A stretch of DNA of 64,000 bases from Candidatus Levyibacteriota bacterium (GTDB lineage: Bacteria > Patescibacteriota > Microgenomatia > Levybacterales > UBA12049), in assembly GCA_052034235.1 (NCBI GenBank), contig JBPOIT010000009.1, positions 72,203 through 136,202 on the forward strand. The letters run 5' to 3'. The notes under the pieces are model-generated. The model did not search any database. It was given only the letters and a program-made list of their open reading frames with translations, and was not told where the DNA came from. Positions 14,759 through 35,793 of this stretch are shown one piece after another. The position numbers and the translations under genes were made by a program. Position 1 is the first letter of the stretch. Every line of letters begins with the position of its first letter.

Positions 14759-14794
14759 AGTATGTCGTTAGTATAACTGCTTGAGGTATGAGCA

Positions 14795-16897
14795 TCAACG
14801 TGCGCATGACCAATATCTGCCCAAACTCCCAATTTTTTTGCCATAGGTTGTCGCATTTTCTGTTTGGATTTCCCAGTTCAAATCACCACGGTCATTTATA
14901 CCATTTTTACCTTCCGCCGGAGGAGGAAGCCCTGGTGGTGAACTGCTTCCCATCTGGTAAAGTCCCCAGGCACCAGCTGCATCAGGTGTTCCTGTATTTG
15001 GGTTTGCATACGCATTAGGGTTATAACCACTCTCACAAGGAACGATCTTATTAAACCAAACATCAGCATTTGCTGGGTCTGCCTGCTTGAGAAGTGCAAA
15101 TAATTTGTCTTTACTAAAATTACATTGAGGATTGCCAAAATTCTTTCCGATGGTGTTACCAAGAGCACCAGCTGCATCTTTGCCATTACACAGGATATTG
15201 CTTGGAGCTACCCATGTACCTGAAATACCTCCTACTGCTCCAATGGTGTTTACTTCAGCCCAAGTAACAAGGTGAGTCTTATCCTTTGTTACTTTATACT
15301 TTATTGTGATAGTAAAGTTTGGGGGATTAAGAAGTGGAGCAGTAACGTTTTCAGAAGCTTTCCATGTTATTGTTTTGGCTGTCGGATTGAAAAGACGTAC
15401 TTGCCAATCCGAAGTGATGTCAGCATCAAGTAAACTAATCCCGTCAGGTAAGTGATCAATAACGATTACCTCTTGTGCAGGCTTTGTATCTTTAACGGTG
15501 ATAGTAAAAGTGACAATGTCTCCAACTTTTGCATCAAGAAGTGGTGGCAATATTTTTACTTTTTCAACTGTTAATGTCTCAAGAATTGCGTTTTCATTCG
15601 CTCTTTTTTCTTCTTCTTTATCGTTGAAAATGAAAAGGAGAAACATAACAACTAAAAATAATACAATCGCGCCACCTAGTATAGCAAGGCCAACTGGTGT
15701 TTTCGTGAAGAAAAAGATAAGTCCTCTTTCTGCCAGTTTCTTAGTTGCTGCTCCGCCCAATGGATTTGAAGGAACTTTGGGAAATCCGCTTTTAAAATTT
15801 CGACTTGGCACTCTGCCCCGCCTACTATTTGGACCTCTACCATCGTTTCTGTTTCTATCCTCACCATTGTCAGAATCATCATCGTCTTGCGAATCGTCTT
15901 GTTCATATGGGCTTGAAGTGGGATACTCAGGCTGAGGCCCTGGTTCATAGAAGTCAGCTCTAGTATTGCCAAGGACATTGTCATCGTTTGGATTGCCAGG
16001 TTGTCCCCGGTCAAACTCCTCAATGGAATAAGGATCAAAGTCCTCGACAACCCTATCTTCTAGTGGAAGAGGAGGCGGGATATATTTTCGCAGTCCTGGA
16101 ATAACAGCATCTTTTTTGCTAGGAGGAAGTATTATTTTTGTTTTTGGTTTTTTTGTAACCGGCTTTATTTGATTAATTGATTGGTCAGTTTTACCAGCTG
16201 GTGTAGCCGCGGCTTTCGTTATTAGTGATATATCTGGTTTTGTGTTAAAGGGTGAAGATTTTGATCCTTGCGGCAATGGTTTATCGTAACTGCTTTTTTT
16301 CACTGGATCTGTATTCCCTCCACGGAAGATGTTGGTTACAGTTCGTTGCCGTGGAATTTTAGGGATATTCTGGTTGATTGGTATACTTTGGTTGATAGCT
16401 TTTGTGGATGGTGTGCTTACTCCGAACGGGGAAGTACTTTTACTTGTTCTCTCGGTAGAAGCTGCGACTGCTGCTGATACTGTAGTAAGATTTTTTTCGT
16501 CCTTCTTTATATCAGAATAATTACCATTTACTTCAAATGGATTTGGTTTTTTTACTGGACCATGATATCCTTCTTCTTCCTTTTTTTCTTTCTTCTCGGG
16601 TTTTTCTGTTGCAATTTTTCGTATCTCCAGTTCAGCTTCATGATGAATACGGGCGACTATAGCTTTTATATCAGCAATATTTTTTGTAGTAGATGTATCT
16701 CTTTTCGCTTTTAATACTGCATTTTTGATGAGGTCTATGACTTTTGGATTCATAAGTCCTGCCTCATTGGACGTAAGAGAAGAGTTTTTAGTAAGACGTG
16801 CTTCAGGAAGATCCATGAGGTGATCAACAAGTTCTTGGATTTCTTTGTTGAGCGTAGTTATTCGTTCTATTTTGGGATCCTTCGTATCGGTAGCCAT
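14795..16897 (-). CDS. bitopic membrane protein with a DUF11-type Ig-like domain and a C-terminal SLT-like lytic transglycosylase domain, a candidate VirB1 analog
   Basis: Low-complexity cytoplasmic N-terminus, a TM segment (ILGGAIVLFLVVMFLLFIF), and a DUF11-like segment (VGDIVTFTITVKDTKPAQEVIVIDHLPDGISLLD). The C-terminal CESGYNP...GAWGLYQM fits the SLT ES...GAxGLMQ catalytic motif. Confidence 0.55.
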   Translation of the reverse strand: MATDTKDPKIERITTLNKEIQELVDHLMDLPEARLTKNSSLTSNEAGLMNPKVIDLIKNAVLKAKRDTSTTKNIADIKAIVARIHHEAELEIRKIATEKPEKKEKKEEEGYHGPVKKPNPFEVNGNYSDIKKDEKNLTTVSAAVAASTERTSKSTSPFGVSTPSTKAINQSIPINQNIPKIPRQRTVTNIFRGGNTDPVKKSSYDKPLPQGSKSSPFNTKPDISLITKAAATPAGKTDQSINQIKPVTKKPKTKIILPPSKKDAVIPGLRKYIPPPLPLEDRVVEDFDPYSIEEFDRGQPGNPNDDNVLGNTRADFYEPGPQPEYPTSSPYEQDDSQDDDDSDNGEDRNRNDGRGPNSRRGRVPSRNFKSGFPKVPSNPLGGAATKKLAERGLIFFFTKTPVGLAILGGAIVLFLVVMFLLFIFNDKEEEKRANENAILETLTVEKVKILPPLLDAKVGDIVTFTITVKDTKPAQEVIVIDHLPDGISLLDADITSDWQVRLFNPTAKTITWKASENVTAPLLNPPNFTITIKYKVTKDKTHLVTWAEVNTIGAVGGISGTWVAPSNILCNGKDAAGALGNTIGKNFGNPQCNFSKDKLFALLKQADPANADVWFNKIVPCESGYNPNAYANPNTGTPDAAGAWGLYQMGSSSPPGLPPPAEGKNGINDRGDLNWEIQTENATTYGKKIGSLGRYWSCAR

Positions 16898-16944
16898 ACA
16901 TTAATAGTAGCAGAGAATATGTAGTTTGGTAAAACTTCTATAAC

Positions 16945-19308
16945 TTATGTTTTTGTTGGATCTTGTTTGCCAAGGCCGGTGGTAGGAGCTGAGACGTTAC
17001 CACCGACATGAGGAGAATTCATTAATGATGGGTGTGTTGCGTCATCTATGGGAGGAGTGCCTGGTGCAGCGCTCGTAGGGGCAGGTACGTCAAATGTTGC
17101 TGTTTGTTTGGTTAGAATCGGTGCAGCACTTGGGTCTTGACCAGCTGCTTTTTCTGCAGCTAATTTTTCTGCAGCGAGTGCAGCAGGACTTCCCGGGACA
17201 TGCTCGACTGGAGGAGGTGCCGTTGGGTTGCTGCTTAAATTTGCCCCAGTAGGCACTGCGTGTCCGTCTGCAGGTGTTTGGTGCTTTGTTGGTTCAGCAG
17301 CAGGAGCGGGTGCAACAGTGGCTCCTCCACCTGCCGGCGCATCTGGTGGTGGGGTATGTGTGGAATAGGAATGTGGAGCTGTCGGTTCTTCAGGTGGTGT
17401 GGCTGTTTCAGCATCAGCTTTGTCAGCTTCTTTTTCTGCTCCCTCTGCTTTGAGCATTCGTTCTTTGTCTTGCTGTCTTTTTAAGAGCTCAATAGGGTTG
17501 GAGGTTATCAGCTCATGTTCAAAAGGCGCGGCAAACACCTTCATAGCAACGTGATTTTGTCCTGCAAAAAAGAGTCCTTCTCCAACATCAGAGGAAAGGA
17601 GTAATGCTTTTTCACCTTCAGAAAGGTAAAAAGTTTCAGCGATCATGTCGACTTCAGCCGTGCCTTGTTTGAGAAGCACCTGAATGGAAGAGTTGGTGAG
17701 AACAGCTTTACCGTATTCATTTTTCAAAAAGTCTTCAACATCCTGCGTTGCAGTTGTGAGTCCCAGATAATATTTACGCGCACGTTTGGCGATAGAATAG
17801 ACAAAGGAAGCTGAGTCAGGATATTTCATCATGTACCAGCCTTCATCAAGAATCAAAATACGTTTCTTTAAGGATTTCTTCACTTTCGTCCACACGAAAT
17901 CAAGAATAATATGCATAGCCACAGGACGAAGCGCTTCCTCCATATTTCTGATAGAGAAGACAGTTAAAGGATTATTGATAGCAAAGTTTGACTGTTGGTT
18001 AAAAATACCGGCGGCACTTCCTTTGATGAACTTTTCAAGCATATAAGCAATTTCGCGAGAAGGCTGACTTTCCATACCCAGAAGTGTTTTATACAAATCT
18101 TCCATAAGTGGTGGCTCCCGTTTTTGGGTGGCAGGATCTGTTGTAATACCTTTCTGTCTGTATGTCTCAATAAGCGCACGGTCAAGGATAGCGTCGTGTT
18201 CTGCATCCAAATCCCCGGTAATAATTTTTAGTAACCCATGTAGAGAGAGAATTTTAAGCCCGAGCTCGTTTTCGCCTTCTTCGTAAATATCAGAAAGATC
18301 AAACGGATTAATTTTAATTTCAGAGCTTGACGAGAAATCAACAACTTCGCCCCCTAATGCAGGCGTTAAGGTAACATATTCTCCGTCAGGGTCAATAACG
18401 ATAACCTCAGCACCAAGCATAAATTGCCTACTGATTTCGAGTTTGATGGTATACGATTTTCCGGCACCGGATTTTCCTAACACAACTTCGTTAGCGTTTT
18501 CAAGAGAAAACCTATCAAAGATAATAAGTGATCCGTTTTGTTGATTGACTCCATACATAACACCTTTGTTTTGGGTCAGAATTGCGGACGTGAACGGAAA
18601 AGTCGACGCAAGAGAAGAGGTGTCCATATTGCGCGTGACATACAATTTATCAATACCCATAGGAACAGTCGTCTTGAAACCTTCTTCCATTTGCAGTGTC
18701 GCTATCTTTCCGGTGACAAGCAATCCTCCAAGTGCTGTTTGAAGTTCTTTTACGGTTTCTTTGAGCTTTGGCAGTTCTTCGTCCGAAATCGTCAGATAAA
18801 ATCCGAACTGAAAGAACCGCTCAATACCTTTTGCGAGTTCTTCTTGGAGTCCAAGTGCGTCTTCAAGCGCAGCTTCAACACTCGGATCTGCTACTTTTCC
18901 TTGTTCAGCATCAGATGAAAGTGTCGCTTCCATTTCTCCAATTTTTCTTTTTAAATCAGCTAACACGTCTGAGGAAGACGTAGGGTAACAAAACATAGCA
19001 ATATCAAGGGTATGATCATAATCAATAATTGGTTGCAGCCAGCCTGGTGATACGTAACGTGGGTATCCAGCGGCAAAAAGTGTCGTGTAATATGTATCGC
19101 CAACGCGTATGTATCGGAAATCAACTTCAACTGATGAAGGAGCTATGATGTCAACGACGGATGTAAGTCCTTTTTCTACAGTTTCAATTGCTTTACTTGT
19201 CGGTGGTGCTGCAACAGCAGCTTTTGCAGCTTTTCCAGCCATAGGAGCTGTGCCTGCTTTTTGAACAGTAGTGGTTGTGGGTTTTGCATTGCCGAATGGT
19301 AATTTCAT
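16945..19308 (-). CDS. virB4: VirB4/TrbE/CagE-family type IV secretion ATPase with a long Pro/Ala-rich C-terminal tail
   Basis: Walker A VVLGKSGAGKSYT and the VirB4-type ILILDEGWYMM (DEAW-like Walker B). The C-terminal tail of roughly 170 aa is low-complexity. Confidence 0.85.
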   Translation of the reverse strand: MKLPFGNAKPTTTTVQKAGTAPMAGKAAKAAVAAPPTSKAIETVEKGLTSVVDIIAPSSVEVDFRYIRVGDTYYTTLFAAGYPRYVSPGWLQPIIDYDHTLDIAMFCYPTSSSDVLADLKRKIGEMEATLSSDAEQGKVADPSVEAALEDALGLQEELAKGIERFFQFGFYLTISDEELPKLKETVKELQTALGGLLVTGKIATLQMEEGFKTTVPMGIDKLYVTRNMDTSSLASTFPFTSAILTQNKGVMYGVNQQNGSLIIFDRFSLENANEVVLGKSGAGKSYTIKLEISRQFMLGAEVIVIDPDGEYVTLTPALGGEVVDFSSSSEIKINPFDLSDIYEEGENELGLKILSLHGLLKIITGDLDAEHDAILDRALIETYRQKGITTDPATQKREPPLMEDLYKTLLGMESQPSREIAYMLEKFIKGSAAGIFNQQSNFAINNPLTVFSIRNMEEALRPVAMHIILDFVWTKVKKSLKKRILILDEGWYMMKYPDSASFVYSIAKRARKYYLGLTTATQDVEDFLKNEYGKAVLTNSSIQVLLKQGTAEVDMIAETFYLSEGEKALLLSSDVGEGLFFAGQNHVAMKVFAAPFEHELITSNPIELLKRQQDKERMLKAEGAEKEADKADAETATPPEEPTAPHSYSTHTPPPDAPAGGGATVAPAPAAEPTKHQTPADGHAVPTGANLSSNPTAPPPVEHVPGSPAALAAEKLAAEKAAGQDPSAAPILTKQTATFDVPAPTSAAPGTPPIDDATHPSLMNSPHVGGNVSAPTTGLGKQDPTKT

Positions 19309-19967
19309 TTCTTTGCCTCCGTAACCATTGTAGCTTGTATTCCTGGTTCTACTTGTTCCACATTAATCCCAGTTCCCTCATTATAAATATCATAAAAAAC
19401 CTTTATCAAATCTTCCTTCTCAAGCACTCTTGCTGAGGTCGCAAATTTTTGCAACTGACCGAGGAGTGTTGATGCTTTTGTATTCAATGCTTTCTTCGCA
19501 TCGACGGCAGTGATTTGTGCCTGAGACATGCCTTTTTGGACCGTTTGTGTTACAGCACTCACTCCAGCTTCAAGTGGAGAATAGGGGATAACGATATAAA
19601 ACGATTTACTCAAAACAACATTAACAGTAACCATCTCATGTACGAACGTGCGGTAATACTCAATATATTGTTTTAATTGTGGATTTTCAGTTTGGGCGAT
19701 AATCTCATCAAGCGATTTAAGATAGATTGAGATGTCGATGCGTTTATTTCTAATGAGAATTTGGATAGGGAAAGAGAGTGAGTTAAGAAGTGATGCGTAC
19801 GCAAAGATGCGGGTATCTTGTTCACGGCGTGATAGGAGCGCGAAGTTACTTGCTGTGATTTCGATAATCATGCAAGCAGCGCCTCCTTCAAGAACAACCA
19901 CATTGTCAACAAAGTCGACAATTTCGGTAAACTTTTGCGTTGTAGCATGTATTTTTTGGGCAGCCAT
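19305..19967 (-). CDS. hypothetical soluble protein translationally coupled to virB4 (ATGA start/stop overlap)
   Basis: 220 aa with no TM. The 4-nt overlap with the virB4 start implies they form an operon. Confidence 0.45.
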   Translation of the reverse strand: MAAQKIHATTQKFTEIVDFVDNVVVLEGGAACMIIEITASNFALLSRREQDTRIFAYASLLNSLSFPIQILIRNKRIDISIYLKSLDEIIAQTENPQLKQYIEYYRTFVHEMVTVNVVLSKSFYIVIPYSPLEAGVSAVTQTVQKGMSQAQITAVDAKKALNTKASTLLGQLQKFATSARVLEKEDLIKVFYDIYNEGTGINVEQVEPGIQATMVTEAKK

Positions 19968-19972
19968 ACGTT

Positions 19973-21295
19973 TTAATTAAATAATTGTTTTCGCAATTCT
20001 TCCCTCGCATCATGGGAAATAATTTCAATTGGTAACATAATTTGATTACTGGCGGTGATCTGAATGACGTCAAACGTGTGTTGTTTTTTTGGATCGTCAA
20101 GTTCAATTGTATAGATACCTTTTGCGAGAGGCGTTGCTGAAGCAAATTGTCCAAGGGCGTTTGTTTTAAACGCACGGACAGGATTACCATCTTTGTCTTT
20201 TACTTCGACAAGCATGTTTGGCAAGATGTTCCCACGAGGATCTTTGACAATTCCCACAACAACGTTTGGTGTATCTGAAATGTTTGGCAAGTCGACTTTT
20301 TTAGCGGGCGCCTGCGGTACCGTTTTCGCATACTGGGAAGCTGGAATTGCAACTGGTGAAGGTGCAGCGGCTGGAATTGGGGTTGGTGCAGCGGCTGCAA
20401 CAACCGGTTGTGCTACAACAGCAGGTTGCACAACTGTTGGTTGTGCTTTTTGTGCTACTAACTGGGATTGTAATTGTTGGATTTCCTGTTCCAATTTGAG
20501 TTTTTGCGTGTGAATCTCCTGAATTTGAGTTTCGAGAGTGGTAACTTTCTCGTGCGCTGCCGGAGCATGTGTTATATTTTCTTCCTGTTTTGCTGTTTGC
20601 AGTTCGTTTTGAAGCTGGTTCTCTTTTTGAGTCAATGATTGCTCTTTTTCCTGCTGGCCAGTAGCCGGCGTTTGCGTAGGTACAACAAGTGGTATTGCGA
20701 CAGCTGCCACTGTTGGTTTCATAGCGATGGGTTTTAAAGCTGGAGTAGGAGAGGCAGTCTGGGCAACAGAGTTTGTGACAGTTGGTAGTGATAATGAGCT
20801 AAGCATCGCTTGTTCCTTCTTATCGAGAGAGTTACTGCTCTGACTATGAGAATTTCGTAAAAATGCCTGCAATTGTGCTGCTTTTATGTCCACACCAGCT
20901 TGTTTTACTGATGCGGTTGTACTTTGTTTGGCGGGTTCTCCCTCAGCGGCAAGTGCAACTTTTGTATAGTTTACCGTCGAAAAACTGAATCTCCTACCAG
21001 TTTTTTTGTATATATATTGATTTGGAGAAAAAATTGCCTTAAAAAAGTTTCCTGCCATGACATCAACAGGTCTTCCTTCAATCGGAACAAATGCAATAAA
21101 CGCCCCACTACCCCCAAGGATTGGAATTAAAAGTACTTTTGTGAGTATTCCAAATATACCAGGCAGGGGTAAATAATAAAGAACAAAGGCCATAATAACA
21201 CCACTCGCGACGTAGCCAAATTGCTTGACGGTCATGGTACCGATGAGTTTAAACTGAAAACCTGTTACGTCTTGTGGAATTGGATGCTGATCCAT
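19973..21295 (-). CDS. PrgI/VirB3-like membrane protein with a coiled-coil, Gln/Ala/Pro-rich linker and a C-terminal beta-sandwich-like domain
   Basis: The N-terminus (FKLIGTMTVKQFGYVASGVIMAFVLYYLPLP) matches the PrgI-family TM hairpin. It has a long QELQ coiled-coil and a C-terminal VVGIVKDPRGN..VEVKDKDGNPV block that looks like a carboxypeptidase-regulatory domain. Start set at ATG 21295; the ORF track's start is GTG at 21322. Confidence 0.5.
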   Translation of the reverse strand: MDQHPIPQDVTGFQFKLIGTMTVKQFGYVASGVIMAFVLYYLPLPGIFGILTKVLLIPILGGSGAFIAFVPIEGRPVDVMAGNFFKAIFSPNQYIYKKTGRRFSFSTVNYTKVALAAEGEPAKQSTTASVKQAGVDIKAAQLQAFLRNSHSQSSNSLDKKEQAMLSSLSLPTVTNSVAQTASPTPALKPIAMKPTVAAVAIPLVVPTQTPATGQQEKEQSLTQKENQLQNELQTAKQEENITHAPAAHEKVTTLETQIQEIHTQKLKLEQEIQQLQSQLVAQKAQPTVVQPAVVAQPVVAAAAPTPIPAAAPSPVAIPASQYAKTVPQAPAKKVDLPNISDTPNVVVGIVKDPRGNILPNMLVEVKDKDGNPVRAFKTNALGQFASATPLAKGIYTIELDDPKKQHTFDVIQITASNQIMLPIEIISHDAREELRKQLFN

Positions 21296-21447
21296 ATAAA
21301 TAAACACAAACAGAATCTGCACTCATAGGTGCTTTACTGTTGCTAAAAGTGTATAACGTGAAAAATTTGATTGCAACTCCAACAAAGTGGGTCAAACAAC
21401 ATAGACATTTGAGGCTAATCGTGAAAAGGGGTGTTTTAGAGAGGGTG

Positions 21448-22315: not shown

Positions 22316-22367
22316 ATGCTACTTTTTTTATTGTTGTCAATAGATCAAAATAAGTCAGTATTTTTCT

Positions 22368-22712: not shown

Positions 22713-22787
22713 ACTTTTTTTTATAAAAGCAAGAGCGCAAATATTCCGAATTGAAGATTGTATATATTACGGGTACAATAAATTTGT

Positions 22788-24122
22788 ATGATTCAAGATC
22801 ATTTAGAAGCCCAATATCCAAGTGACAGCCGGGAGGAAGAAATTAGCAAAATTTTTGCCTTTGCCGCGGAAGGGAATTCGTGTCAGATTATTGGTATTCC
22901 AGGAACCGGAAGAACAAGCCTCCTCGAAATACTTGCATATAACAAAGAACTTCAAAAGAAACATTTAACGAATTTAGAAATGAAACCTCATTTCGTTATG
23001 GTTAATTTTTCTGAAATCAGGAATCGATCTTTGTTTGATGCCATGAAATTTATGTTTCTCAATCTTACGGAGTCACTTCGTGAAGAGAAAATGCCTGAGG
23101 AGCATAAAGTTGTCGGCGATAAATTTAGAGAACATTTGCAATTTCAGGATGAGCTGATACTTTTTCAAGGATTTAAAGAAGCTGTTGATTATATGGCAAA
23201 TGAAAAGAAAATAACTCTTGTCTTTTTGTTTGATCGTTTTGAAGAATATATTCCAATAGTCACAAGTGGATTCTTTACGAATTTACGGGTGCTTCGTAGT
23301 AATGCAAAATATCATTTTTCAATAGTTTTTTCACTGCCACGACCATTAGAATCACTCCTTGAACCTTCTCTTCTATCGGACTATTACGAATTCGTTGCAG
23401 ATAGGCATATTTATCTTAATCTTTATGATGTTCCATCGACCAGTTTCCGTTTATCTTACATAGAAAAGATTACCAGTAAAAAACTAGATAAGAAAGTGTT
23501 TGAAGAAATAGTCGGCATGACGGGTGGTCTTGGAAAACTGACAAAACTTGCTGTTGAGGCTGTTCTGGCAAATAATGGAACGCCTGAACGATTGCAGGAT
23601 TTTTTGCTTGCACAAAAGACTATACGGGCAGGACTTCGTGATATTTGGCAGACATTATCTCCTGCTGAGCAAGCAGATCTTCTTGAGAAGAAATTTGAAG
23701 ATCCAGATGTCGCAGTATATTTGGAACAAGTTGGCTTGATAAAAGATAAGCATATACAAATCCCATTAATAGCTGCATTTATCGACACTTTTGCAAATGA
23801 GCAATCAGCTGAAGCTCAAAAAATTGTTTATGATGAAAATACAAACACTATAAAAAAAGGTTCAGTAACACTTTCTGACCAGCTAACGTCATCTGAATTC
23901 CGATTACTCAGATATCTTTTGCAAAACCAGGAAAAGGTAGTTGAGAGAGATGAACTTATTGGTGTCGTGTGGCAGGGGAATAAATCGACGGCAGGTATTA
24001 CAGACCAGGCAGTTGATCAGCTCGTATTTCGTGTTCGTCGCAAAATTGAAGAAGACCCCAACAATCCTCAACACCTGCAGACTGTAAAGGGTCGCGGGTT
24101 TAAATTTGTTTCTTCAATGTAG
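22788..24122 (+). CDS. transcriptional regulator with an N-terminal P-loop NTPase-like domain and a C-terminal OmpR/PhoB-type winged helix
   Basis: Walker-A-like GIPGTGRTSLLE, with Arg in place of the canonical Lys. The C-terminus (EFRLLRYLLQNQEKVVERDELIGVVW...AVDQLVFRVRRKIEEDP...LQTVKGRGFKF) is a typical trans_reg_C domain. There is no receiver domain. Confidence 0.65.
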   Translation: MIQDHLEAQYPSDSREEEISKIFAFAAEGNSCQIIGIPGTGRTSLLEILAYNKELQKKHLTNLEMKPHFVMVNFSEIRNRSLFDAMKFMFLNLTESLREEKMPEEHKVVGDKFREHLQFQDELILFQGFKEAVDYMANEKKITLVFLFDRFEEYIPIVTSGFFTNLRVLRSNAKYHFSIVFSLPRPLESLLEPSLLSDYYEFVADRHIYLNLYDVPSTSFRLSYIEKITSKKLDKKVFEEIVGMTGGLGKLTKLAVEAVLANNGTPERLQDFLLAQKTIRAGLRDIWQTLSPAEQADLLEKKFEDPDVAVYLEQVGLIKDKHIQIPLIAAFIDTFANEQSAEAQKIVYDENTNTIKKGSVTLSDQLTSSEFRLLRYLLQNQEKVVERDELIGVVWQGNKSTAGITDQAVDQLVFRVRRKIEEDPNNPQHLQTVKGRGFKFVSSM

Positions 24123-24187: not shown

Positions 24188-27100
24188 ATGAGTAATCCAA
24201 ACGAAGAAGAAAAATTGACACCAAGTTCGGCGAAAGGCTATGATGGAGATAGTACTCAAATGGCTGAAAAACCTGAAATTGAAAATTCTGATGAAGAAAG
24301 AGATCCTCACGATAGTGAGGTAGACCCTCATGGAGAAGATAAACCGGAAACGAATGAACAGCAAAATACAGAGACGAAAAAAAATACTATTGCTGAAATG
24401 TTTAGTGCACTTCTTTCCTCAGTAAATCCTGAGAATGGTGGTCCGGAAGATAAAATCTTCAAAACAGTTGTTGAGGCAGTTACAGACGCAACTTCAAAAA
24501 ATAAGAATCCCAATAAAGCAATTGCTGAAGTAATGAGCTCATTTCTTCTTCCCAATAAGCCAGCTGCAGATTCTACGGAGGAAGAGTTGGAAGGAACAAA
24601 AAAAGCGAGAGTGGTTTTTGATACCATTCTTGAGAGTGCAGAGGAAGCACATCTTGATTCAAAAGCAATTTTAAAAGAGCTTGCAGGTATCGCTAAAGAA
24701 CAGCAGGAAGAACTACCTACAACGGCTCAAGATAGATATGTAGTATTTGAGCAGCATTTGAAAAAAACCCTTAATACTGCTTCTGACGAGGCACTTCAGA
24801 TTATGCACGAAGACCTGAAAAAACTTCGTGCAGAGATAGCCAATGACACCCAGCTCGATGAAGGCGTGTACGAAGCGGTTTTAGATTCGGAAACGCTTCT
24901 CGCAGAAGTGGTAGAAGTAAAAGAAGACACAGCAACGCAGGAATTTATAGAAATTCAACAGGCAAATGATAAAAAATTTGCTCAAGTTATCGTAACTGTT
25001 TTTGAATCAGTTGCAGAGACCCGATTCACAAATCTTACTCCTGGCAAAGAAGTTAATTTGCGAAAAGAAGAACAGCTGAAAGCAGATCATCTCATGAAAC
25101 TCTTATTGGCGAGTGATGATCCTAAGCAACAAAAGCAGGAATTAGTTGCAGCACTGCTGACGAGTTATCCAGTTGCAGGTTCAAGTGCTGAGCAGCAAGA
25201 AGCACTTGCAATGAGAGAACGAATCATGGGTTATGCAAAACTTGCCGGGTTGGACGAGAAAGCAATTTTAGACAATCAAGCGATTATTGCAGCTGAGGAT
25301 ATGCTTGTGTCAAAAACAGATGCAGTAAATGATTCTGAGTCTATAGTTGGGTCTGATCTCAATGCGTTTGAGAGAAAAGTTGAACAGCAAATTGCCAATG
25401 CTTCAGCGGAAAGAGTGAAAGAGATTCAGGATACATGGAAGGATTTACTAGAAAGTGTTGATCCCAATAGTGAAACGGCTCGTGAAGCTCTAGAAGCAAT
25501 CGCGGTGCTTGATAACATTATCCAACTAAAAGAAATGCAAGCAGCTCGAGATCGAGGGGAATCTGTTGATTTCAGTACACTTCCGGTGCCAAAGGAATAC
25601 AAACATAATGATCACGAAGCAAAAGAATCGGCAAGCAAAAGTGAATCTGATAAAGAATTAGCAGCTTTACTCGCCAAGCTTTTCTCACCGCTTCGTAAAG
25701 GTGACAAAGCAGAAGATTATGCGCTGGTAAGTGTAATTACCGATTTTATTCTTGCGTCAGAACATACCAAAGAAGAAAAAGAAGCACTAATTGCTGGTAT
25801 TGCCAAATGCTTCTCTCAAAAAGATACCCATACATCTGAAGCGAATGACATACCCTCCTATCTCCGAATATATGCGGATTCCGTGGCATTAGCTCAGCCA
25901 ACAGTTGATGCAGGAACATCAGAAAAAGAAGGACATGAAGACACACCTGAGTTATTGCAGAAACTTATCGAAGAAGCATTAGCTAAAGTTTCTCACAAAG
26001 ACCTTATTCAGTTAAAAGGTGCACTGGGCTTTGTTGCTATTAAAGAAAAACCTTCAGCTGAGATTAAAGAACAGATTACACAAACGATAGCTTTTATTAA
26101 TGCTCTGCCAACTGATAAAGAAAATGCAAAAAAAGCTGATGCATCACAGCGGCCTGTCGAGAAGCCAGAGAAAGCGATCAAAGCTGAAGATGCAGAGAAA
26201 ATAGAAGAAAGATTGGTTGAAGGCTCAATGCAGACAATAGAAGCAAAGAGGCAATCATTCTTCGAAGAGACGCACTTTATTAATGAAGAAAACAATATCG
26301 AGCGGTTTAATGTTGTGCGTTTAGAGAATTATGCAAACAACCTGAAGGATTTAGGTAGTCAACTCTCTGAGTCGGAGCTCAAGTCAGCTTATATGGCGCT
26401 GCAAAAACAGATAACACTTTCCAGAAGAGCTCCGGAATTTAATGGCAATTTTCATTTGGACGAAGTATTACACGTCAACGAGATTTCTAATGATGCGCTG
26501 CGTGATATCGTGGCTCGGTTGCGAGAAACAATGGCTCCTGCCGAGGTAATGAAGTTCATTAATGAGACAAAACGCTCGTTGAGAGATAATAAAGCATATA
26601 ACGAGCGACTTTCTCTACCTCCACGAGTTTACAATATGGAGCCAACGGTTGTTGAAGCTTCTGTTGGTAATCGATACTACGAACCCGGCTCGAGGTTTCA
26701 ATTAGGGAACGCTATTAACGAGATTCGTTCCATGTCCACGACGCCAGATCCTGCTTTGCCAGCAAATTTAGGATCTGATTATACAGAAATTGCAACAAAT
26801 ATAAAGACCCAACAGGAATTTTCTAATACGGCAGTATTGGAAGATCGTATGCATAAGCTTAACTCTCTGATGTCTGAAGGTATGAGAGCAGGTATCAATC
26901 TTAAGGACATGACACAGGCACAGGCTTTGGCGCAGCAATTACATGCACAGCGACAAGAAATAGCAGTAATGGAGCAAATGTATAAAGGTCAGATGGATGA
27001 ACGAACATATAAAGCTGAAGATGAAGCACTCTACGAAGGTTATATACATACAGCTCTTGGAGAACGGATTAAACGTATTCAAATCGAGTTGGAGATCAAA

Positions 27101-30100
27101 TCCGGATTGCGATCACGTACTTATGTTGATTCGAGTGGGAATACCCACACGCATAAGGTTCGAACAGACGAAGAGCTTATAGCTTATTACACAGAACTGC
27201 GAAAATGGGCAAAAATTCTTCTAAAAAATGATGTGCGAAATAATGCGGGTAAAGCAGGGCAAGAAGGGGCGCTTAATTTATCGAACGAACGGTTTAAGCG
27301 ATATAGTGACATTGTAAAAGCTCTCCCAGACTCTTTTGATCTTGCAAATGCGACGGATACTGCAGCTATGCTAAGTAACGTTAATTACATGTTTGATATA
27401 ACAACATCAGGAGGAGATTTTTTGCGCTACTTTATGAGAAATACGAAAAATCCAAAAGGAATTGATCCAGAGAAACATGACTCAATAGATTTTAATCCTC
27501 ATGAATTACTGGGGGTCGATTATCGCCATGCTGAAGGTACCAGTTCGTTCGGGTTGCCGAAATCTCTGGAGGATACCATGGCAATTATGGCAAGACAGTA
27601 CTCTACAGAGAAAATTAATTATAGAACTGGAGGAGATCACGAATTATTCGATGGGGAAGGAAATTTTAAATTCAACAATTTCTATTACCTCATTCGTGAA
27701 CAGATTCTGAACAATGATATCTTATATAACAAAGATGGACAGATTAACCCAATGCAAAAAATTACCGTAAAGGGTGATGCTTCATCAGTCTCTCTGGCAG
27801 AGTTATTGGTTTTAATGCCTGAATATTTATCCCAAAGAACGTTTGATATCGTTGTCGATAACGATGGAGACGTTACTTCAGGATGGGGGCGTCCAACAGA
27901 ACACCCTGAATTTACGTGGGCACAAGCACAACAGTTGGGTGCTGAAGTTGAATTTAGAATCATGACTCACGAAGCGAGAATTCAGTATGTCCAAGCGTCA
28001 CTTGCTGGGGATAAAGGGAAGTATTTGCAACTTATGGAGTATTTGCATAAATCAAATCATTGGGTTCGTGCGAATAATATTATGTGGCTGCTTGGTTTAC
28101 CATCAGCGGTAACAAATGGTTCGCAGGAAATTATAGATGTCGTTGGTCCCAAAGAAACCCAAGGCACACTCGGAAAAGCAGTGAGCGATATGCTCGTTGG
28201 GTATAATTATATAAATGAAGTCTCAAAATATTACAAACATGCAAATGGGGAAGAGAAAACCTTCAATGAAAACATGTTTTATAGATTTTGGGAACCAAAT
28301 GGCGCAAATAAATTTCTTGTAACTATGACTGAAGAGACATTAAATAACTACAGTGACGCCAAAAGAGAATATGGGCGATTTATTCAGGAGCGCATACAGG
28401 CGGCAGCAGTGAGGGCTCGCTCTCTTGCGGGAGGAGATGCTGTCAAACTCGAAAAAATTGACCGCCAACTACAAGACCAAACACAAGCAATTCAGGCGGA
28501 AATGGATAAACAAAATGTAGGACTTGATATTCGGTTTACCAAAGACAGTCATTTAATGAAATTTTTACAATATACAGAAAAAGAAGTGTTGGGAAGGAAA
28601 TTCCGTAATAAAAAAGAAGAAGAAGAGTATTTCAAATTTACGGTGCGTGATGATCTCCTTGATAATTTAAAAGGCGGTTTGTTTACAAAATTAGCTGATA
28701 TGCAAGTTCATGAACTTGATACACTTGTAGATAAAAATAATAAGACCAAAGATCGTCCTGATACCTATCTTTTTCTTCGGGCAAAACAGAATAAAATGCG
28801 CTTTGGGGACATACGTTTTGATGGGCAGACGATAGAAGAGTTGTTAAACGACTTTAACCCTGAGCAAATCAAACGGTTTGATTACACAAACAAGGCAGAT
28901 GATCCACGAAATCACTTCAGTGCTTTCGCAAATGATCCTGATCGATTGCGAAGAGAATTGGATACGTATATGGATGCGAAAATTAATCCAGAGAATTACA
29001 AGTTCTTTAAACATAACGAAAAAATGATGCTTGCCTTTCTCAAACATGTAACGCGAATTGATCGGGCATGGCTTAATCATTTCCGTGATATTCCGGAGAA
29101 TGAAGTTGTAAAAGATATGGAGAAACGCGCAATGGAAGAATGTGTACAGCTAGTCCATGGTGTTGATGACATAGAAGCGACATACGCATGGTGGCAAGCA
29201 CGAGATTATATCTATATTTGGGGAATTGGTGATTGGTTGGATGATAGTGGTATCGGATTCAGAACTGGTGGTAAACTTTTTCATACTGGCAAATGGCGTG
29301 CACATAGAGGTGGCAAAGACGGTGCTGGGAATAAAGACACCTTCGACGAATTTGGAGCAGTGGCGCTACCCTTCTTAAACACTATTCAAATTCATGATAT
29401 AGAAGGGCATCAAGAGCTTGGGCATCAAAGTATTTTTAGTTTACTACAAGGCGGGCATGGCTATAATATTACACCACGTGCTGCACGTGAGTTTAAACCA
29501 CGTAGTCGGTACTCGATAGCGCATGATTCTGAAGAGTTATATGTCGCAAATATGCTTTCAAACGCAGCAGAACTTGCAGATTTACTCTCAACGACGGAAG
29601 TTGACTTTACGAATATTGTTGCGACAGATCCTTTGGGTAATATTGTTTTTGATTATGGAAAAGCACGAGAGCTGTTTAAAAAATGGCGTAAAGCTATCAG
29701 ATATTCATATCAAAAAAACGGTATTGATTATCGCGAGAAAATCTGGGTTGACGGACAGGAGAAAACCCTGTATGAATTTTGTTTTGGTAAAAAAACACGT
29801 GCAATTAATGAACTGATCAGACAAGAAACTGGTCGCTCTATTGACGATATGTTTCGTGATACGGCAGATGCTGTTATGGCATCAATTATTGCTGCTGAAG
29901 TCTATGAACACAGGAAAATGCATTTGAGTGGCCATCACTGGACAATCGAGAATGTGATTGAACTCGAAAAAGTTATCCGGGAGTTTATGGATGAGTCTGA
30001 TTTAGAAGAAGACGAACATGGAGATGTTGAGCTCGTGCGTAAAGGCAATGCCTTCACAAAAAAAGTCTTCAGCGGCGCACTGAAAGCATATCATACAAGT

Positions 30101-30211
30101 TATGAAAAAATGTATATGGCAGAATTGAATTCATCTTTCTGGGGAGGTTTGTTCGCAGGCTTATGGGCAGGATTGAATGCCTCACTCACGAAAGGGAAAT
30201 GGATATATTAG
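24188..30211 (+). CDS. giant (2007 aa) hypothetical protein with an acidic low-complexity N-terminus, no signal peptide, and a short hydrophobic C-terminus
   Basis: An uninterrupted 6 kb open frame in an AT-rich genome. No recognisable catalytic motif. The C-terminal FWGGLFAGLWAGL segment is hydrophobic/amphipathic. Its stop overlaps the convergent virB6-like gene. Confidence 0.7.
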   Translation: MSNPNEEEKLTPSSAKGYDGDSTQMAEKPEIENSDEERDPHDSEVDPHGEDKPETNEQQNTETKKNTIAEMFSALLSSVNPENGGPEDKIFKTVVEAVTDATSKNKNPNKAIAEVMSSFLLPNKPAADSTEEELEGTKKARVVFDTILESAEEAHLDSKAILKELAGIAKEQQEELPTTAQDRYVVFEQHLKKTLNTASDEALQIMHEDLKKLRAEIANDTQLDEGVYEAVLDSETLLAEVVEVKEDTATQEFIEIQQANDKKFAQVIVTVFESVAETRFTNLTPGKEVNLRKEEQLKADHLMKLLLASDDPKQQKQELVAALLTSYPVAGSSAEQQEALAMRERIMGYAKLAGLDEKAILDNQAIIAAEDMLVSKTDAVNDSESIVGSDLNAFERKVEQQIANASAERVKEIQDTWKDLLESVDPNSETAREALEAIAVLDNIIQLKEMQAARDRGESVDFSTLPVPKEYKHNDHEAKESASKSESDKELAALLAKLFSPLRKGDKAEDYALVSVITDFILASEHTKEEKEALIAGIAKCFSQKDTHTSEANDIPSYLRIYADSVALAQPTVDAGTSEKEGHEDTPELLQKLIEEALAKVSHKDLIQLKGALGFVAIKEKPSAEIKEQITQTIAFINALPTDKENAKKADASQRPVEKPEKAIKAEDAEKIEERLVEGSMQTIEAKRQSFFEETHFINEENNIERFNVVRLENYANNLKDLGSQLSESELKSAYMALQKQITLSRRAPEFNGNFHLDEVLHVNEISNDALRDIVARLRETMAPAEVMKFINETKRSLRDNKAYNERLSLPPRVYNMEPTVVEASVGNRYYEPGSRFQLGNAINEIRSMSTTPDPALPANLGSDYTEIATNIKTQQEFSNTAVLEDRMHKLNSLMSEGMRAGINLKDMTQAQALAQQLHAQRQEIAVMEQMYKGQMDERTYKAEDEALYEGYIHTALGERIKRIQIELEIKSGLRSRTYVDSSGNTHTHKVRTDEELIAYYTELRKWAKILLKNDVRNNAGKAGQEGALNLSNERFKRYSDIVKALPDSFDLANATDTAAMLSNVNYMFDITTSGGDFLRYFMRNTKNPKGIDPEKHDSIDFNPHELLGVDYRHAEGTSSFGLPKSLEDTMAIMARQYSTEKINYRTGGDHELFDGEGNFKFNNFYYLIREQILNNDILYNKDGQINPMQKITVKGDASSVSLAELLVLMPEYLSQRTFDIVVDNDGDVTSGWGRPTEHPEFTWAQAQQLGAEVEFRIMTHEARIQYVQASLAGDKGKYLQLMEYLHKSNHWVRANNIMWLLGLPSAVTNGSQEIIDVVGPKETQGTLGKAVSDMLVGYNYINEVSKYYKHANGEEKTFNENMFYRFWEPNGANKFLVTMTEETLNNYSDAKREYGRFIQERIQAAAVRARSLAGGDAVKLEKIDRQLQDQTQAIQAEMDKQNVGLDIRFTKDSHLMKFLQYTEKEVLGRKFRNKKEEEEYFKFTVRDDLLDNLKGGLFTKLADMQVHELDTLVDKNNKTKDRPDTYLFLRAKQNKMRFGDIRFDGQTIEELLNDFNPEQIKRFDYTNKADDPRNHFSAFANDPDRLRRELDTYMDAKINPENYKFFKHNEKMMLAFLKHVTRIDRAWLNHFRDIPENEVVKDMEKRAMEECVQLVHGVDDIEATYAWWQARDYIYIWGIGDWLDDSGIGFRTGGKLFHTGKWRAHRGGKDGAGNKDTFDEFGAVALPFLNTIQIHDIEGHQELGHQSIFSLLQGGHGYNITPRAAREFKPRSRYSIAHDSEELYVANMLSNAAELADLLSTTEVDFTNIVATDPLGNIVFDYGKARELFKKWRKAIRYSYQKNGIDYREKIWVDGQEKTLYEFCFGKKTRAINELIRQETGRSIDDMFRDTADAVMASIIAAEVYEHRKMHLSGHHWTIENVIELEKVIREFMDESDLEEDEHGDVELVRKGNAFTKKVFSGALKAYHTSYEKMYMAELNSSFWGGLFAGLWAGLNASLTKGKWIY

Positions 30212-32064
30212 CGCTTCTGTCCGTCTGCAAATCCATTAAATTTGACCAGTTTGTAACGGAGACGTTTCATTGCAGGTACATATGATTGTCTATTACCCCA
30301 ACTGAAGTTTGGATCCCCAGTCTCTGCACCTTTTCCGGCAGCGACTCTTCGTAGCCATCCAGCATCATGTTCGTGCAGTTTGGCATTGCGTGTGCCATGG
30401 TTCCACATTGCGCCAAACGCAGCTCTTGGTACTGCTGCTCCAGCTGCAAGTCCTGCTCCAATTGCTGCTCCATGTTTTGTCCCAGTCACTTTAAGAGATT
30501 CCTGAAGAATGGCGAGCATTGATGGTGACATCAAGAGTAGTCCAAAAGCAATAAGCCATCCCATAAGCCCAAGGATATTTGGATTTCCTATAAGCGGGGC
30601 GATAAAATAGTCTGGAGTGCCGGCTGCGATCGCAGAATCTCCAGCAGCAGCGGCAGCAGTGCTTTTATTACTGAATAACTCCACAAACAAACGTGCTAGC
30701 ACAAAGACAAAGGCTGTAACAGGAAAAACTGCGAGATTAGCAACCATTGAGCGAAGCCATTTTTCAAAACCAAGTGGTTTACCAGGTAGTAATCCCATCA
30801 CAATAAAGAACGGGGCAGCTATAGAATAAATTATGACATAGGTGTAGGCTTTAAGTAGGGTAAACCATACACTAAAAAGTACTTTCAAAATTGTAATAAG
30901 AATAATAAGCCATAAGAGCATTTTTGCAATAAAACCAATGACAGTTGCAAAGCATCCTCTAAACGAAAATCCACCTAGACCAATACCACAATCATCTGTA
31001 TTTTTTATATTCATCATCTGCTTAATAAGTTGTTCCATAAATTGTCCCAAACTGTATGAAACTTCCTGGGTAATATTTTTAATGCCTATATCAATATCAT
31101 TGTCGCCAAAATTCAAAACGTCATTGTTCTCAGCGACTCTAAACACGTTATTCACATAGGTCAAAGGCATTTGGAGTAAATTAGCGGTAGCTACATCAGA
31201 AAGTGGACGAGTTTGTGAATTAGGATCTTTGGCGTTGCCGTTTGCGTCAAGTGATGTATCTAAATTTTTATCACCGGGAACCATGGGATTTGTGATTGAG
31301 TTTTCGCCTGGGCCTCCTGCTGATGTAATGACGTTGATGCCGACATAAGTCGTTAGCCACATTGTATCAATGAGTAACCCTGCAATTCCGTATGAAAAAG
31401 TTACGAGAATAATACAAACTATAATGCGAGGAATTTGATTTTGAATTGTCATAATTGTTCGAGGAGACATTTCAATTCGAAGCATTATGCCAAGGCCGAT
31501 GATGACGAACGCAACCATCAAAAGAAAATATGCCATATTTCGAATAGCAGTCCAGAGTGTTAATAAGGGGTTTAGCCCTTGAAACCCATATCCAAATTCC
31601 TGCGCATATGCGGGTTTCACTATGCCGAAGTTCTGTGCGAGATAGTCTGTATACTGACTTGTACTGATTGTTGGTGTATATAAGGCACTAATCAAATTTG
31701 TAGAAGCACCCACAATACCTCCAATTTTTGGAGAACCATCCTTATCCAGTGAAGCAGGATTATACCCAATTTTGCCGGTGGTAGGATTAACGTCCAAACA
31801 AGCATGGTTTTGATCCACTGGATCTATTCCGACGAGTATACACATCGTTGATGCCATGAGATCAATCATGAGTGTTTGTACCCTCGTGTGTTGGTTCACC
31901 GGAACATTGGAGTCGGTATTTGGCAAATTGTAGGAGTTGCCTGTATTTGACGTTGGATATGAAGATTGTGTTGATGTTTGAGCAAGCACTGGTGAGGTCC
32001 CAAAAAAGAACGTCACAAGTGATAAACAGAAGACTACAATAAAAGCGCGGGCAGCAAAGCGCAT
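30208..32064 (-). CDS. VirB6/TrbL-like polytopic membrane protein
   Basis: Signal peptide, a roughly 150-aa S/T/N-rich extracytoplasmic region, then at least 6 TM helices with long loops. It sits within the T4SS-like locus. Confidence 0.45.
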   Translation of the reverse strand: MRFAARAFIVVFCLSLVTFFFGTSPVLAQTSTQSSYPTSNTGNSYNLPNTDSNVPVNQHTRVQTLMIDLMASTMCILVGIDPVDQNHACLDVNPTTGKIGYNPASLDKDGSPKIGGIVGASTNLISALYTPTISTSQYTDYLAQNFGIVKPAYAQEFGYGFQGLNPLLTLWTAIRNMAYFLLMVAFVIIGLGIMLRIEMSPRTIMTIQNQIPRIIVCIILVTFSYGIAGLLIDTMWLTTYVGINVITSAGGPGENSITNPMVPGDKNLDTSLDANGNAKDPNSQTRPLSDVATANLLQMPLTYVNNVFRVAENNDVLNFGDNDIDIGIKNITQEVSYSLGQFMEQLIKQMMNIKNTDDCGIGLGGFSFRGCFATVIGFIAKMLLWLIILITILKVLFSVWFTLLKAYTYVIIYSIAAPFFIVMGLLPGKPLGFEKWLRSMVANLAVFPVTAFVFVLARLFVELFSNKSTAAAAAGDSAIAAGTPDYFIAPLIGNPNILGLMGWLIAFGLLLMSPSMLAILQESLKVTGTKHGAAIGAGLAAGAAVPRAAFGAMWNHGTRNAKLHEHDAGWLRRVAAGKGAETGDPNFSWGNRQSYVPAMKRLRYKLVKFNGFADGQKR

Positions 32065-32155: not shown

Positions 32156-32245
32156 TGGCGGAGAGAGGGGGATTCGAACCCCCGATAGCCTTGCGGCCAT
32201 ACACGCTTTCCAAGCGTGCGCACTCGACCACTATGCGATCTCTCC
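32156..32245 (-). tRNA. tRNA-Ser(GGA), class II, with CCA encoded
   Basis: Manual fold: acceptor GGAGAGA/TCTCTCC, anticodon loop TTGGAAA, long variable arm, T-loop GGTTCGAATCC. Confidence 0.8.
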
Positions 32246-33125: not shown

Positions 33126-33187
33126 ATACCCGTGTAAGAATCCAAACTTCTTGATAGCATGTGAATTCTACACGGTAACCAATAATG

Positions 33188-34112: not shown

Positions 34113-34119
34113 CACAGTT

Positions 34120-35787: not shown

Positions 35788-35793
35788 CCTTTG

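Follow-up and report, generated by a model that had tools for sequence, protein, structure and literature searches.

Transcription factors with a STAND-type nucleotide-binding module are already known as a kind, and so is the OmpR-type DNA-binding domain. AfsR, a protein of ~990 aa (amino acids), and the other large SARPs of Streptomyces combine an OmpR/PhoB winged helix and a STAND nucleotide-binding oligomerization domain (NOD) in one transcription factor. Inhibition of the OmpR-type DNA-binding domain of AfsR by its NOD and TPR domains is relieved when ATP, but not ADP, is bound (PMC10936776). The MalT/LAL/GutR regulators begin with a STAND module, which is followed by a C-terminal DNA-binding effector. 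Here we analyze a gene in a 64,000-nucleotide (nt) stretch of the genome of a Candidatus Levyibacteriota bacterium (GenBank assembly GCA_052034235.1, contig JBPOIT010000009.1, positions 72,203 to 136,202 of the forward strand), referred to below as the window. The gene lies in a type IV secretion system (T4SS) cluster, and its 444-aa product, the regulator of this text, consists of a STAND-like nucleotide-binding module and a C-terminal OmpR/PhoB winged helix. AfsR is the closest characterized analogue of the regulator, which differs from it in that the DNA-binding domain is C-terminal (residues 365-440) instead of N-terminal, a BTAD (no Pfam match) and a TPR sensor are absent, the Walker A motif contains an Arg, and the gene belongs to Patescibacteria and is linked to a T4SS, whereas AfsR is linked to antibiotic clusters. 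No description of a STAND NTPase with a C-terminal OmpR domain was found in the open-access literature. The features that we regard as new are the placement of the OmpR domain C-terminal to a NOD, the lack of a sensor domain, a selected Lys-to-Arg exchange in the P-loop, and the dedication of the protein to the T4SS of Patescibacteria.

Because the gene lies beside pilin genes in every related genome examined, it is probably the regulator of the T4SS cluster. We also consider it moderately likely that the protein is a minimal STAND-type switch, that is, a cytoplasmic transcription factor dedicated to the Levybacteria-type T4SS of Patescibacteria that binds a nucleotide and hydrolyzes it slowly or not at all. 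The start codon of the gene (Table 1) is backed by the N-terminus M..EHFEAQFP, which is kept in >100 homologues of ~442 aa; more than 800 homologues of about this length were found, with database labels such as 'winged helix-turn-helix domain-containing protein', 'DNA-binding response OmpR family regulator', and 'hypothetical protein'. The single significant Pfam domain in the regulator is Trans_reg_C (PF00486), which matched residues 365-440 over profile positions 5-77 of 77 and, at 68.4 bits (E=5.7e-19), exceeded its cut-off of 26.2 bits. Sequence matches of the C-terminus in the Protein Data Bank (PDB) are the DNA-binding domains of RegX3, OmpR, PhoB, and WalR (best 8e-10), and a Foldseek search matched it to the DNA-binding domain of YycF (2d1v) with a template modeling (TM) score of 0.80 on the target. 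In an AlphaFold2 model, the domain comprises strands 346-349 and 354-357, helices 368-379, 387-394, and 406-420, and a hairpin at 430-440. Homologues show hardly any variation in KSTAGIT (residues 399-405), the loop ahead of the recognition helix; in OmpR/PhoB activators this loop touches RNA polymerase.

The OmpR/PhoB response regulators have the same C-terminal fold and belong to the same family, but the regulator has neither a receiver domain nor a phospho-acceptor Asp, and its assembly would instead be driven by the NTPase-like module. The Pfam search of the regulator gave no Response_reg match, and the NCBIfam response-regulator models aligned to residues 328-443 only, with 24-48 bits against cut-offs of 250-500. 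Repeat domains (TPR, WD40, LRR, SUPR) were likewise without a match in the Pfam search, all 444 residues being covered by the NOD and the OmpR domain, and a hydropathy scan of the protein found no membrane segment. No second copy of the regulator is present within the 64-kb window. An initial reading of the letters without database searches (the sequence-only reading) had described a C-terminal trans_reg_C domain without a receiver domain, and both statements hold.

The AlphaFold model, fold matches, and distant canonical homologues together identify the first ~340 aa as a STAND/AAA_16-like nucleotide-binding module. The model, which was built on 65 homologues, has a predicted local distance difference test score (pLDDT) of 90 and a predicted TM-score (pTM) of 0.87. 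Its alpha/beta domain contains strands 32-35, 67-73, 143-149, 177-183, and 207-209, followed by helices 215-229, 235-245, 249-261, and 269-314 and a hairpin at 317-322. The nucleotide-binding domain (NBD) is thus followed by a helical bundle (215-262) and by a unit of three helices and a hairpin (269-325), after which come a linker helix and the OmpR-type domain. This order of helices and strands agrees with that of the tripartite NOD (NBD, helical domain (HD), and winged-helix domain (WHD)), a plan also found in ORC/Cdc6 proteins, and from the model we infer that the NBD, the lid, and the small winged helix make up an NBD-HD-WHD module. Foldseek against the PDB returned ORC4, Cdc6, and archaeal Orc1/Orc2 (E ~1e-6 to 1e-5), the archaeal ATPases 2qen and 2fna, CED-4, and MalT, all with probability 1.0 and with low global TM-scores (0.3-0.4).

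Sequence models place the module less directly. The best Pfam match of the N-terminus, to AAA_16, starts at residue 15 and is below threshold (E=0.0035, 18.3 bits against 32.6), as are those to nSTAND6 (14.5 bits, cut-off 27.7), nSTAND3 (13.1, 27.2), AAA_18, and AAA. Since the regulator falls below every Pfam NTPase threshold, the NTPase assignment is one of fold prediction and transitive homology. When residues 1-335 were searched with phmmer against 1.84 billion representatives, the matches comprised 394 clusters at 50% identity, of which 106 had E<=1e-10, and the full-length members were nearly all 410-500 aa long. Distant homologues show a canonical GxxGxGKS that aligns with GIPGTGRTS of the regulator. 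Among 99 sampled full-length members (phmmer E 1e-9 to 1e-20), all 99 matched Trans_reg_C at the C-terminus, and N-terminal matches were to nSTAND1 (36 members, best E 1.2e-11), AAA_16 (36), AAA_22 (31), NPHP3_N (14), and NACHT (8). A profile search of PDB sequences with a diverse family alignment found OmpR-type domains only and no solved sequence relative of the N-terminal module. The STAND-like NTPase domain of the sequence-only reading is thus borne out by fold matches and by transitive homology to members that match nSTAND1, AAA_16, and NACHT, and neither the domain models nor AlphaFold placed the N-terminus in a non-NTPase family.

The P-loop of this module carries an Arg at the normally invariant Lys position, as the sequence-only reading had stated. 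Nucleotides 22893-22928 (GGT ATT CCA GGA ACC GGA AGA ACA AGC CTC CTC GAA) encode GIPGTGRTSLLE (residues 36-47), so that the canonical Walker A pattern GxxxxGK[ST] is departed from at Arg42. This Arg is present in 119 of the 120 closest homologues. Among 68 orthologues drawn at species level from the GTDB genomes, 60 have R at this position, 7 have K, and 1 has Q. All six Arg codons are in use at position 42 across the orthologues (AGA 23, AGG 6, CGT 11, CGG 9, CGC 7, and CGA 3), which indicates that Arg42 has been held at the protein level over a long divergence and is a selected feature, neither chance nor a sequencing error, on the evidence of the codons. The K-type orthologues have exactly the gene neighborhood of the R-type ones. 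In a rough neighbor-joining tree of the superfamily, Lys is the common state and Arg is found in at least 4 separate lineages.

The remaining pocket motifs are kept as well. R15 and E18 of the helix ahead of strand 1 are present in 112 and 114 of 120 homologues; we take R15-x-x-E18 to be a GRExE-like motif, the motif names used for the regulator being drawn from our knowledge of STAND proteins. In the Walker B region, R150, F151, E152, and E153 are invariant or nearly so in the homologue alignments, and an extended Walker B of the form D-x-x-[DE]-E is typical of NACHT. The candidate sensor-1 residue Arg185 is R in 66 and K in 5 of 71 orthologues. Mean column conservation is highest for the Walker B segment (0.80), followed by the P-loop (0.73), compared with 0.69 for the NBD and 0.70 for the DNA-binding domain. 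This high conservation argues that the site is in use, and we read the pattern at position 42 as a requirement for a basic residue that holds phosphate. Catalysis, in contrast, is probably not the selected activity, to judge from the exchange of Arg and Lys among orthologues of identical synteny, from the relaxation of three other positions, and from a sister clade without a P-loop. The relaxed positions are Gly41 (G 51, N 36, and S 33 in the 120 closest homologues, i.e., N or S in 69), Ser43 (G, A, or N in 11 of 68 orthologues), and Asp149 (N, E, S, or H in 17 of 71 orthologues; D149 is kept in 100 of 120 homologues). A few relatives have GRED or GREQ, with Glu instead of Ser/Thr after the Arg. 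The clade without a P-loop (P0176, P0189, P0193, P0196, P0202, P0244, P0248, P0249, P0257, P0259, and P0266; locus L083) has a conserved G-M-K-R-V-G-I-S-N-F-L-R and F-x-R-F-D-R in place of Walker B, and keeps the C-terminal OmpR domain. It represents a second departure from the NTPase site, more radical than Lys-to-Arg.

A close orthologue of the regulator was found in 73 species-level genomes. The synteny scan, which used one genome per species and covered the close clade, accordingly comprised 73 loci, mostly from Levybacteria/Levyibacteriota or from metagenome-assembled genomes (MAGs) labeled 'Patescibacteria group'. Neighbors were assigned by iterative profile searches with the window's own proteins, and counts refer to the 47 loci in which each flank was 3 kb or longer. 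A pilin gene directly adjoins the regulator in all 47, and a member of the family of either of two large open reading frames (ORFs) that follow the regulator in the window, X and Y, is in the flank in all 47; VirB4 or PrgI is encoded within 10 kb in 40, and DnaN or DnaA within 10 kb in 16. Two gene orders occur. In 27 loci, including the window, the pilin genes are divergent from the regulator, X follows on the strand of the regulator, and Y is on the opposite strand (pilins(-) <> regulator(+) X(+) Y(-)). The other 20 are arranged as Y(+) X(-) <> regulator(+) pilins(+) PrgI TraC VirB4, and here the regulator is the first gene on the pilin/VirB4 strand, divergent from X. As the regulator stands between X and the pilins in both, at least one inversion of the flanking blocks relative to the regulator must have taken place. 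Many records with the cluster are titled 'uncultured Gammaproteobacteria bacterium' (L009, L010, L014, L021, and others), and further ones Methylomirabilota, Acidiferrales, or Lysobacterales; by gene content and contigs of 0.9-1.6 Mb, these look like mislabeled MAGs.

The window cluster is the T4SS described for Patescibacteria as MPF-FATA-like, which is chromosomal, relaxase-less, and located near dnaA; nearly all classes carry a T4SS without conjugation components (PMC12102498). The article and its supplements mention no winged-helix or OmpR-type gene and name no regulator, and none was described for a Patescibacteria T4SS in the open-access literature that we found. The pilin genes, which in the window are transcribed divergently from the regulator, are its candidate targets. 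The sequence-only reading had placed the gene between pilin genes and a giant ORF and proposed it as the likely locus regulator. This role is supported by the constant pilin adjacency, and both neighbors are present, the giant ORF being the 2007-aa X; the pilins, however, are VirB2-like T4SS pilins and not those of type IV pili.

The promoters of the divergent genes could be predicted from the DNA. The -10 box of the regulator promoter is close to the ATG and no Shine-Dalgarno sequence precedes it, so that the regulator mRNA is probably leaderless or near-leaderless. A TAnAAT element ends 4-10 nt (mostly 6-7) before the regulator start in 40 of 66 non-redundant loci, compared with 1.8% of random positions, and a Shine-Dalgarno-like core upstream of the regulator was found in 0 of 66. 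On the minus strand, the promoter of pilin-1 (22695-22745) reads TTGCTT-17-TACGGT-6 nt-ATG, with the ATG at 22697 and again no Shine-Dalgarno sequence, and this mRNA appears to be leaderless too. The listed TTG start of the pilin-1 ORF (22712) is probably wrong, the ATG at 22697 (MVEYITL...) fitting the promoter. As the -35 boxes of the regulator and pilin-1 lie back to back, a protein bound between these promoters could affect both. The second pilin gene has its own near-consensus promoter on the minus strand (22311-22340; TTGACA-18-TATGAT, 11/12), so the pilin genes do not form a simple single operon; since its -10 box overlaps the listed ATG at 22315, the real start of this gene is probably the downstream MKKLL.

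Operator sites were sought in the related loci. A search of 67 loci for exact 6-mer direct repeats, at a spacing of 10-12 bp ahead of the regulator, revealed nothing general. Among 5-mer direct repeats in 315 intergenic segments of the cluster, TCAAA occurred in 12 loci and TGTAA in 7, and these trace to species-specific heptamer arrays. Eight loci share the conserved 17-mer TTGATATTTACCTTACA upstream of the regulator, which points the same way as the pilins in 7 of them. Near the window regulator this 17-mer does not occur, and its one match with 3 mismatches, at 55936, is at chance level. Tandem arrays of 7-bp or 8-bp units in 3-15 copies directly precede the regulator, within the last 120 nt before its start, in 15 of 65 loci and are species-specific (for example GTCGAAA x15, TTTTGAC x7, and CTAGTTG x5; loci such as L027, L030, L033, L037, L040, L049, L053, and L073). 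Of the 209 remaining ORF-free gaps in these loci, 16 contain such arrays too. As they occur in other gaps, differ in sequence between species, and are absent from the window, heptamer arrays were dropped as a general operator; possible readings are phase-variation tracts prone to slippage and an intergenic feature spread across the genomes of some Levybacteria.

The architecture extends well beyond the T4SS-linked clade. A K-type relative that is 37% identical keeps the pilin linkage; it lies beside ribonucleotide reductase genes, with no dnaA or dnaN in its 10-kb flanks. Among more distant members (20-25% identity), one adjoins gyrB and gyrA and one is located among hydrolase and transporter genes. 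Because distant members sit elsewhere, the architecture appears to be general and the T4SS-linked clade one specialized branch of it. Two other members at 20-25% identity, in loci L081 (P0213) and L082 (P0275), adjoin genes for TCAD9-domain, NB-ARC, TPR, and histidine-kinase proteins, an arrangement that recalls the 'ternary' conflict/signaling systems. The family is common in metagenomes and unnamed. The arrangement, which the sequence-only reading had called unusual, does differ from that of characterized regulators, but it is not rare, given the ~394 clusters at 50% identity and the Trans_reg_C match in every sampled member; a search for the same architecture in databases thus revealed a common family, though not a commonly annotated one, since it is neither annotated nor named.

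Comparison with other STAND and AAA+-like proteins sets the regulator apart in similar ways. Like it, members of the MalT family (MalT 8bob, Foldseek E 1.9e-4) have a GRExE-like motif before the P-loop, but their effector is a LuxR-type helix-turn-helix rather than an OmpR-type domain, and the regulator lacks their SUPR/TPR sensor and has a non-canonical Walker A. The closest sequence families of the N-terminal module, through distant homologues, are nSTAND1 and NACHT (PF20703, PF05729); compared with proteins of these families, the regulator scores below thresholds, has no repeat sensor and no death or effector domain, and is encoded by a chromosomal core gene rather than in a variable defense island. 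ORC/Cdc6 initiators are the best structural matches (7tjh_D 1.1e-6, 1w5t, 2v1u, 1fnn) and are likewise built from an NTPase, a lid, and a DNA-binding winged helix at the C-terminus, but the TM-scores are 0.34-0.41, no sequence-level model matches, and the regulator has an OmpR-type DNA-binding domain and T4SS synteny. A degenerate site is not unique among STAND proteins: KpAvs8 has degenerate Walker A and B motifs and is presumably without ATPase activity (PMC13581612). Proteins of that type, however, are phage-sensing defense proteins with large sensor domains, whereas the regulator combines a selected Lys-to-Arg exchange with a transcription-factor context.

In the mechanism that we propose, whose DNA targets, oligomerization, ligand identity, and sign of regulation (positive or negative) we infer, the OmpR-type domain would bind DNA in the divergent promoter region shared with pilin-1 (22713-22787), and possibly also upstream of the other pilin genes and ORF X. 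The nucleotide-binding module would replace the phosphorylated receiver domain and gate either the access or the self-association of the DNA-binding domain. It would bind a nucleotide or another phosphate ligand and hydrolyze it slowly or not at all, and occupancy by the ligand rather than turnover would set the state, as ATP binding activates AfsR. Binding with little or no hydrolysis is the most likely activity because the Walker A Lys is an Arg and because Gly41, Ser43, and Asp149 are relaxed. In RecA and Rad51, the Lys-to-Arg exchange keeps ATP binding and abolishes hydrolysis. The sequence-only reading had predicted a binding-only or pseudo-ATPase module, which is plausible; the stricter statement that the module binds but does not hydrolyze seems to us evenly balanced.

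Several points weigh against the proposal. The invariant Glu152/Glu153 and Arg185 could allow residual hydrolysis, and 'non-hydrolytic' is therefore too strong a description. In many STAND proteins, as seen in NLR mutants, an engineered Lys-to-Arg exchange kills function and not hydrolysis alone, so the ligand may not be a nucleotide. The regulator itself reaches no Pfam NTPase threshold. Both divergent promoters have good -35 and -10 boxes, as far as can be judged from their letters, and would not obviously require an activator. Lastly, the repeat and motif searches of related loci for a DNA-binding site or conserved operator gave nothing transferable to the window.

The relaxed pocket positions also bear on a different explanation, in which the module is a decayed pseudo-NTPase scaffold that holds no ligand and serves as a constitutive oligomerization or stability domain, leaving an unregulated, autoregulated DNA-binding factor. 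The sister clade with GMKRVGIS, which lost the P-loop and kept the architecture, the Glu after the Arg in some relatives, and the lack of a sensor domain would all suit such a scaffold. A ligand-free site would be expected to drift, however, and conservation in the protein peaks at the P-loop and Walker B, Arg42 was held through synonymous codon turnover, and a basic residue is present in 67 of 68 orthologues. We therefore regard a scaffold as distinctly unlikely. A little less probable still is an accessory role in DNA handling, with the protein recognizing or recruiting a DNA or nucleoprotein substrate for the T4SS and standing in for missing relaxosome or coupling functions. The strict embedding of the gene in the cluster, the lack of a relaxase and other conjugation components in most Patescibacteria T4SS clusters (PMC12102498), and the union of an NTPase-like and a DNA-binding domain, which is the logic of DNA-processing and loading factors and is echoed by the ORC/Cdc6 fold matches, are compatible with this role. 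It is harder to reconcile with a DNA-binding domain that is full-length and typical of OmpR/PhoB, nearly invariant loop before the recognition helix included, with the absence of a membrane segment and of similarity to VirD4/TraG-type coupling proteins or relaxases in Pfam, and with distant members of the same architecture that have no T4SS nearby.

The ORC4, Cdc6, and archaeal Orc1/Orc2 matches, together with the distance of only ~10 kb between the cluster and dnaA-dnaN in the window and the presence of DnaN or DnaA nearby in part of the loci (16/47), could also point to an ORC/Cdc6- or DnaA-like origin factor whose T4SS neighborhood is incidental. This is very improbable. Pilin adjacency is constant (47/47) where proximity to DnaA/DnaN is not, the 37%-identical relative keeps the former without the latter, and the T4SS is itself known to lie near dnaA in these classes (PMC12102498). 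The TM-scores to ORC are low, and the 99 sampled relatives match STAND families (nSTAND1, NACHT, AAA_16), with neither they nor the regulator matching an ORC/Cdc6 Pfam model. Equally hard to credit, and if anything more so, is a STAND-type immune or conflict sensor of the nSTAND/ternary-system kind, with the winged helix as effector or as sensor of foreign DNA. Distant members match nSTAND1, and two adjoin TCAD9-domain, NB-ARC, and TPR genes. In the Levybacteria clade, however, the gene is single-copy and fixed in position in a conserved chromosomal cluster (47/47 loci), the best PADLOC match reaches only E=0.0012 over the P-loop stretch, and the protein has no sensor repeats and no toxic effector domain. 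The STAND-type transcriptional switch for the T4SS thus remains the reading that we prefer.

Table 1. Positions of the regulator gene, its predicted domains and motifs, and the surrounding genes in the 64,000-nt window.
Feature	Position	Strand	Description
Regulator gene	22788..24122	+	444 aa, ATG start, TAG stop; STAND-like nucleotide-binding module, then C-terminal OmpR/PhoB winged helix
Predicted sigma-70-type promoter of regulator	22751..22779	+	TTGAAG, 17 nt, TACAAT; -10 ends 8 nt before ATG; no Shine-Dalgarno
Nucleotide-binding domain	22830..23417	+	~residues 15-210; alpha/beta P-loop fold (model secondary structure, Foldseek)
R15-x-x-E18, GRExE-like motif	22830..22841	+	Helix ahead of strand 1, as in AAA_16/STAND regulators
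Walker A / P-loop GIPGTGRTS	22893..22919	+	Residues 36-44; Arg42 (AGA, 22911-22913) at normally invariant Lys position
Walker B region VFLFDRFEEY	23220..23249	+	Residues 145-154; hhhhD then x-F-E-E, extended NACHT-like acidic motif
Arg185	23340..23342	+	After strand 4 (FSIVFSLPRP; strand 177-183 in model); candidate sensor-1 arginine, putative role
Helical lid and small winged-helix subdomain	23430..23762	+	Lid ~215-262, holds conserved TGGxGKLTKL; winged helix ~269-325; from model, putative subdomain names from helix/strand order
OmpR/PhoB-type winged-helix DNA-binding domain	23820..24110	+	Residues 345-441; N-terminal beta-sheet, three helices, C-terminal hairpin
VirB2-like T4SS pilin gene	22368-22712	-	Pfam PF18895 T4SS_pilin, E=3.7e-7
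VirB2-like T4SS pilin gene	21872-22315	-	PF18895, E=3e-9
VirB2-like T4SS pilin gene	21448-21852	-	PF18895, E=2.1e-6
Rest of minus-strand T4SS operon	12276..21322	-	Pfam matches; gene order same in related loci
PrgI-like	19973-21322	-	
TraC-like	19305-19967	-	220 aa
VirB4-like ATPase	16945-19308	-	
DUF11 protein and small proteins	within 12276..21322	-	DUF11 protein of 700 aa
Peptidase_M74-like cell-wall hydrolase	12935-13669	-	
dnaN	11159-12268		Ahead of minus-strand T4SS operon
dnaA	9565-10917		Window start region
ORF X	24188..30211	+	2007 aa, directly downstream of regulator; family member flanks regulator opposite pilins
ORF Y	30208..32064	-	618 aa; N-terminal hydrophobic segment (possibly signal peptide) and ~8 hydrophobic segments

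ORF X has no Pfam domain and, by hydropathy, no hydrophobic segment or transmembrane helix. Its sole direct BLASTP match among the related loci is weak (E=8e-5, residues 1773-1990) and is to an 828-aa ORF of L005, which in turn matches 994-aa and 1281-aa ORFs at the same position; iterative profile searches and synteny link these proteins into the X family. Homologues of ORF Y in the related loci have 38-46% identity. X and Y converge, the last codons of Y sharing 4 nt with the 3' end of X. Y is a polytopic membrane protein that is VirB6-like by topology only and is possibly a VirB6-like channel component.

Outside the cluster, the dnaA-dnaN spacer contains an 11-bp repeat, ACATTTTATCC, in 3.5 copies (10951-10989), which includes TTATCC and is DnaA-box-like. 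To judge by these letters, the repeat, which lies ~12 kb away from the regulator, probably belongs to oriC. An Rfam scan of the window found tRNAs only. Six tRNA genes lie within 7 kb (32156-38821), five of them for tRNA-Ser, with anticodons GGA, TGA, CGA, GCT, and the unusual ACT (38736-38821); bacterial tRNAs other than tRNA-Arg(ACG) seldom have an anticodon that begins with A. The listed plus-strand ORF at 33185-33985 overlaps the minus-strand tRNA-Ser gene at 33187-33271, and its start is thus probably further downstream.

The gene is a strong regulator candidate for a T4SS of unknown function (PMC12102498), one considered central to a very large and little-understood bacterial group; its conservation resembles that of a core gene, and the small size of its product suits in vitro and reporter studies. 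The family also offers a natural experiment on the Walker A Lys, with Arg, Lys, and Gln alternating in one genomic context while the pocket is conserved, and a domain model for the N-terminal module would improve the annotation of ~400 clusters. Patescibacteria (Candidate Phyla Radiation) account for a large part of the diversity of bacteria and live attached to other cells, and they are thought to be largely unable to make their own nucleotides. They are described as depending on host cells (PMC12102498). A bolder and rather unlikely extension of our proposal is that the protein is the master switch of the Patescibacteria T4SS, a hydrolysis-independent sensor of nucleotide occupancy whose STAND module, with its Lys/Arg-interchangeable P-loop, would read the cellular ATP/ADP or NTP pool and, by way of the OmpR-type winged helix, directly set the expression of the pilins and of the secretion machine through which these cells interact with their host. 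If true, this would be a one-protein substitute for a two-component system and would provide a first regulatory handle on the epibiotic lifestyle.

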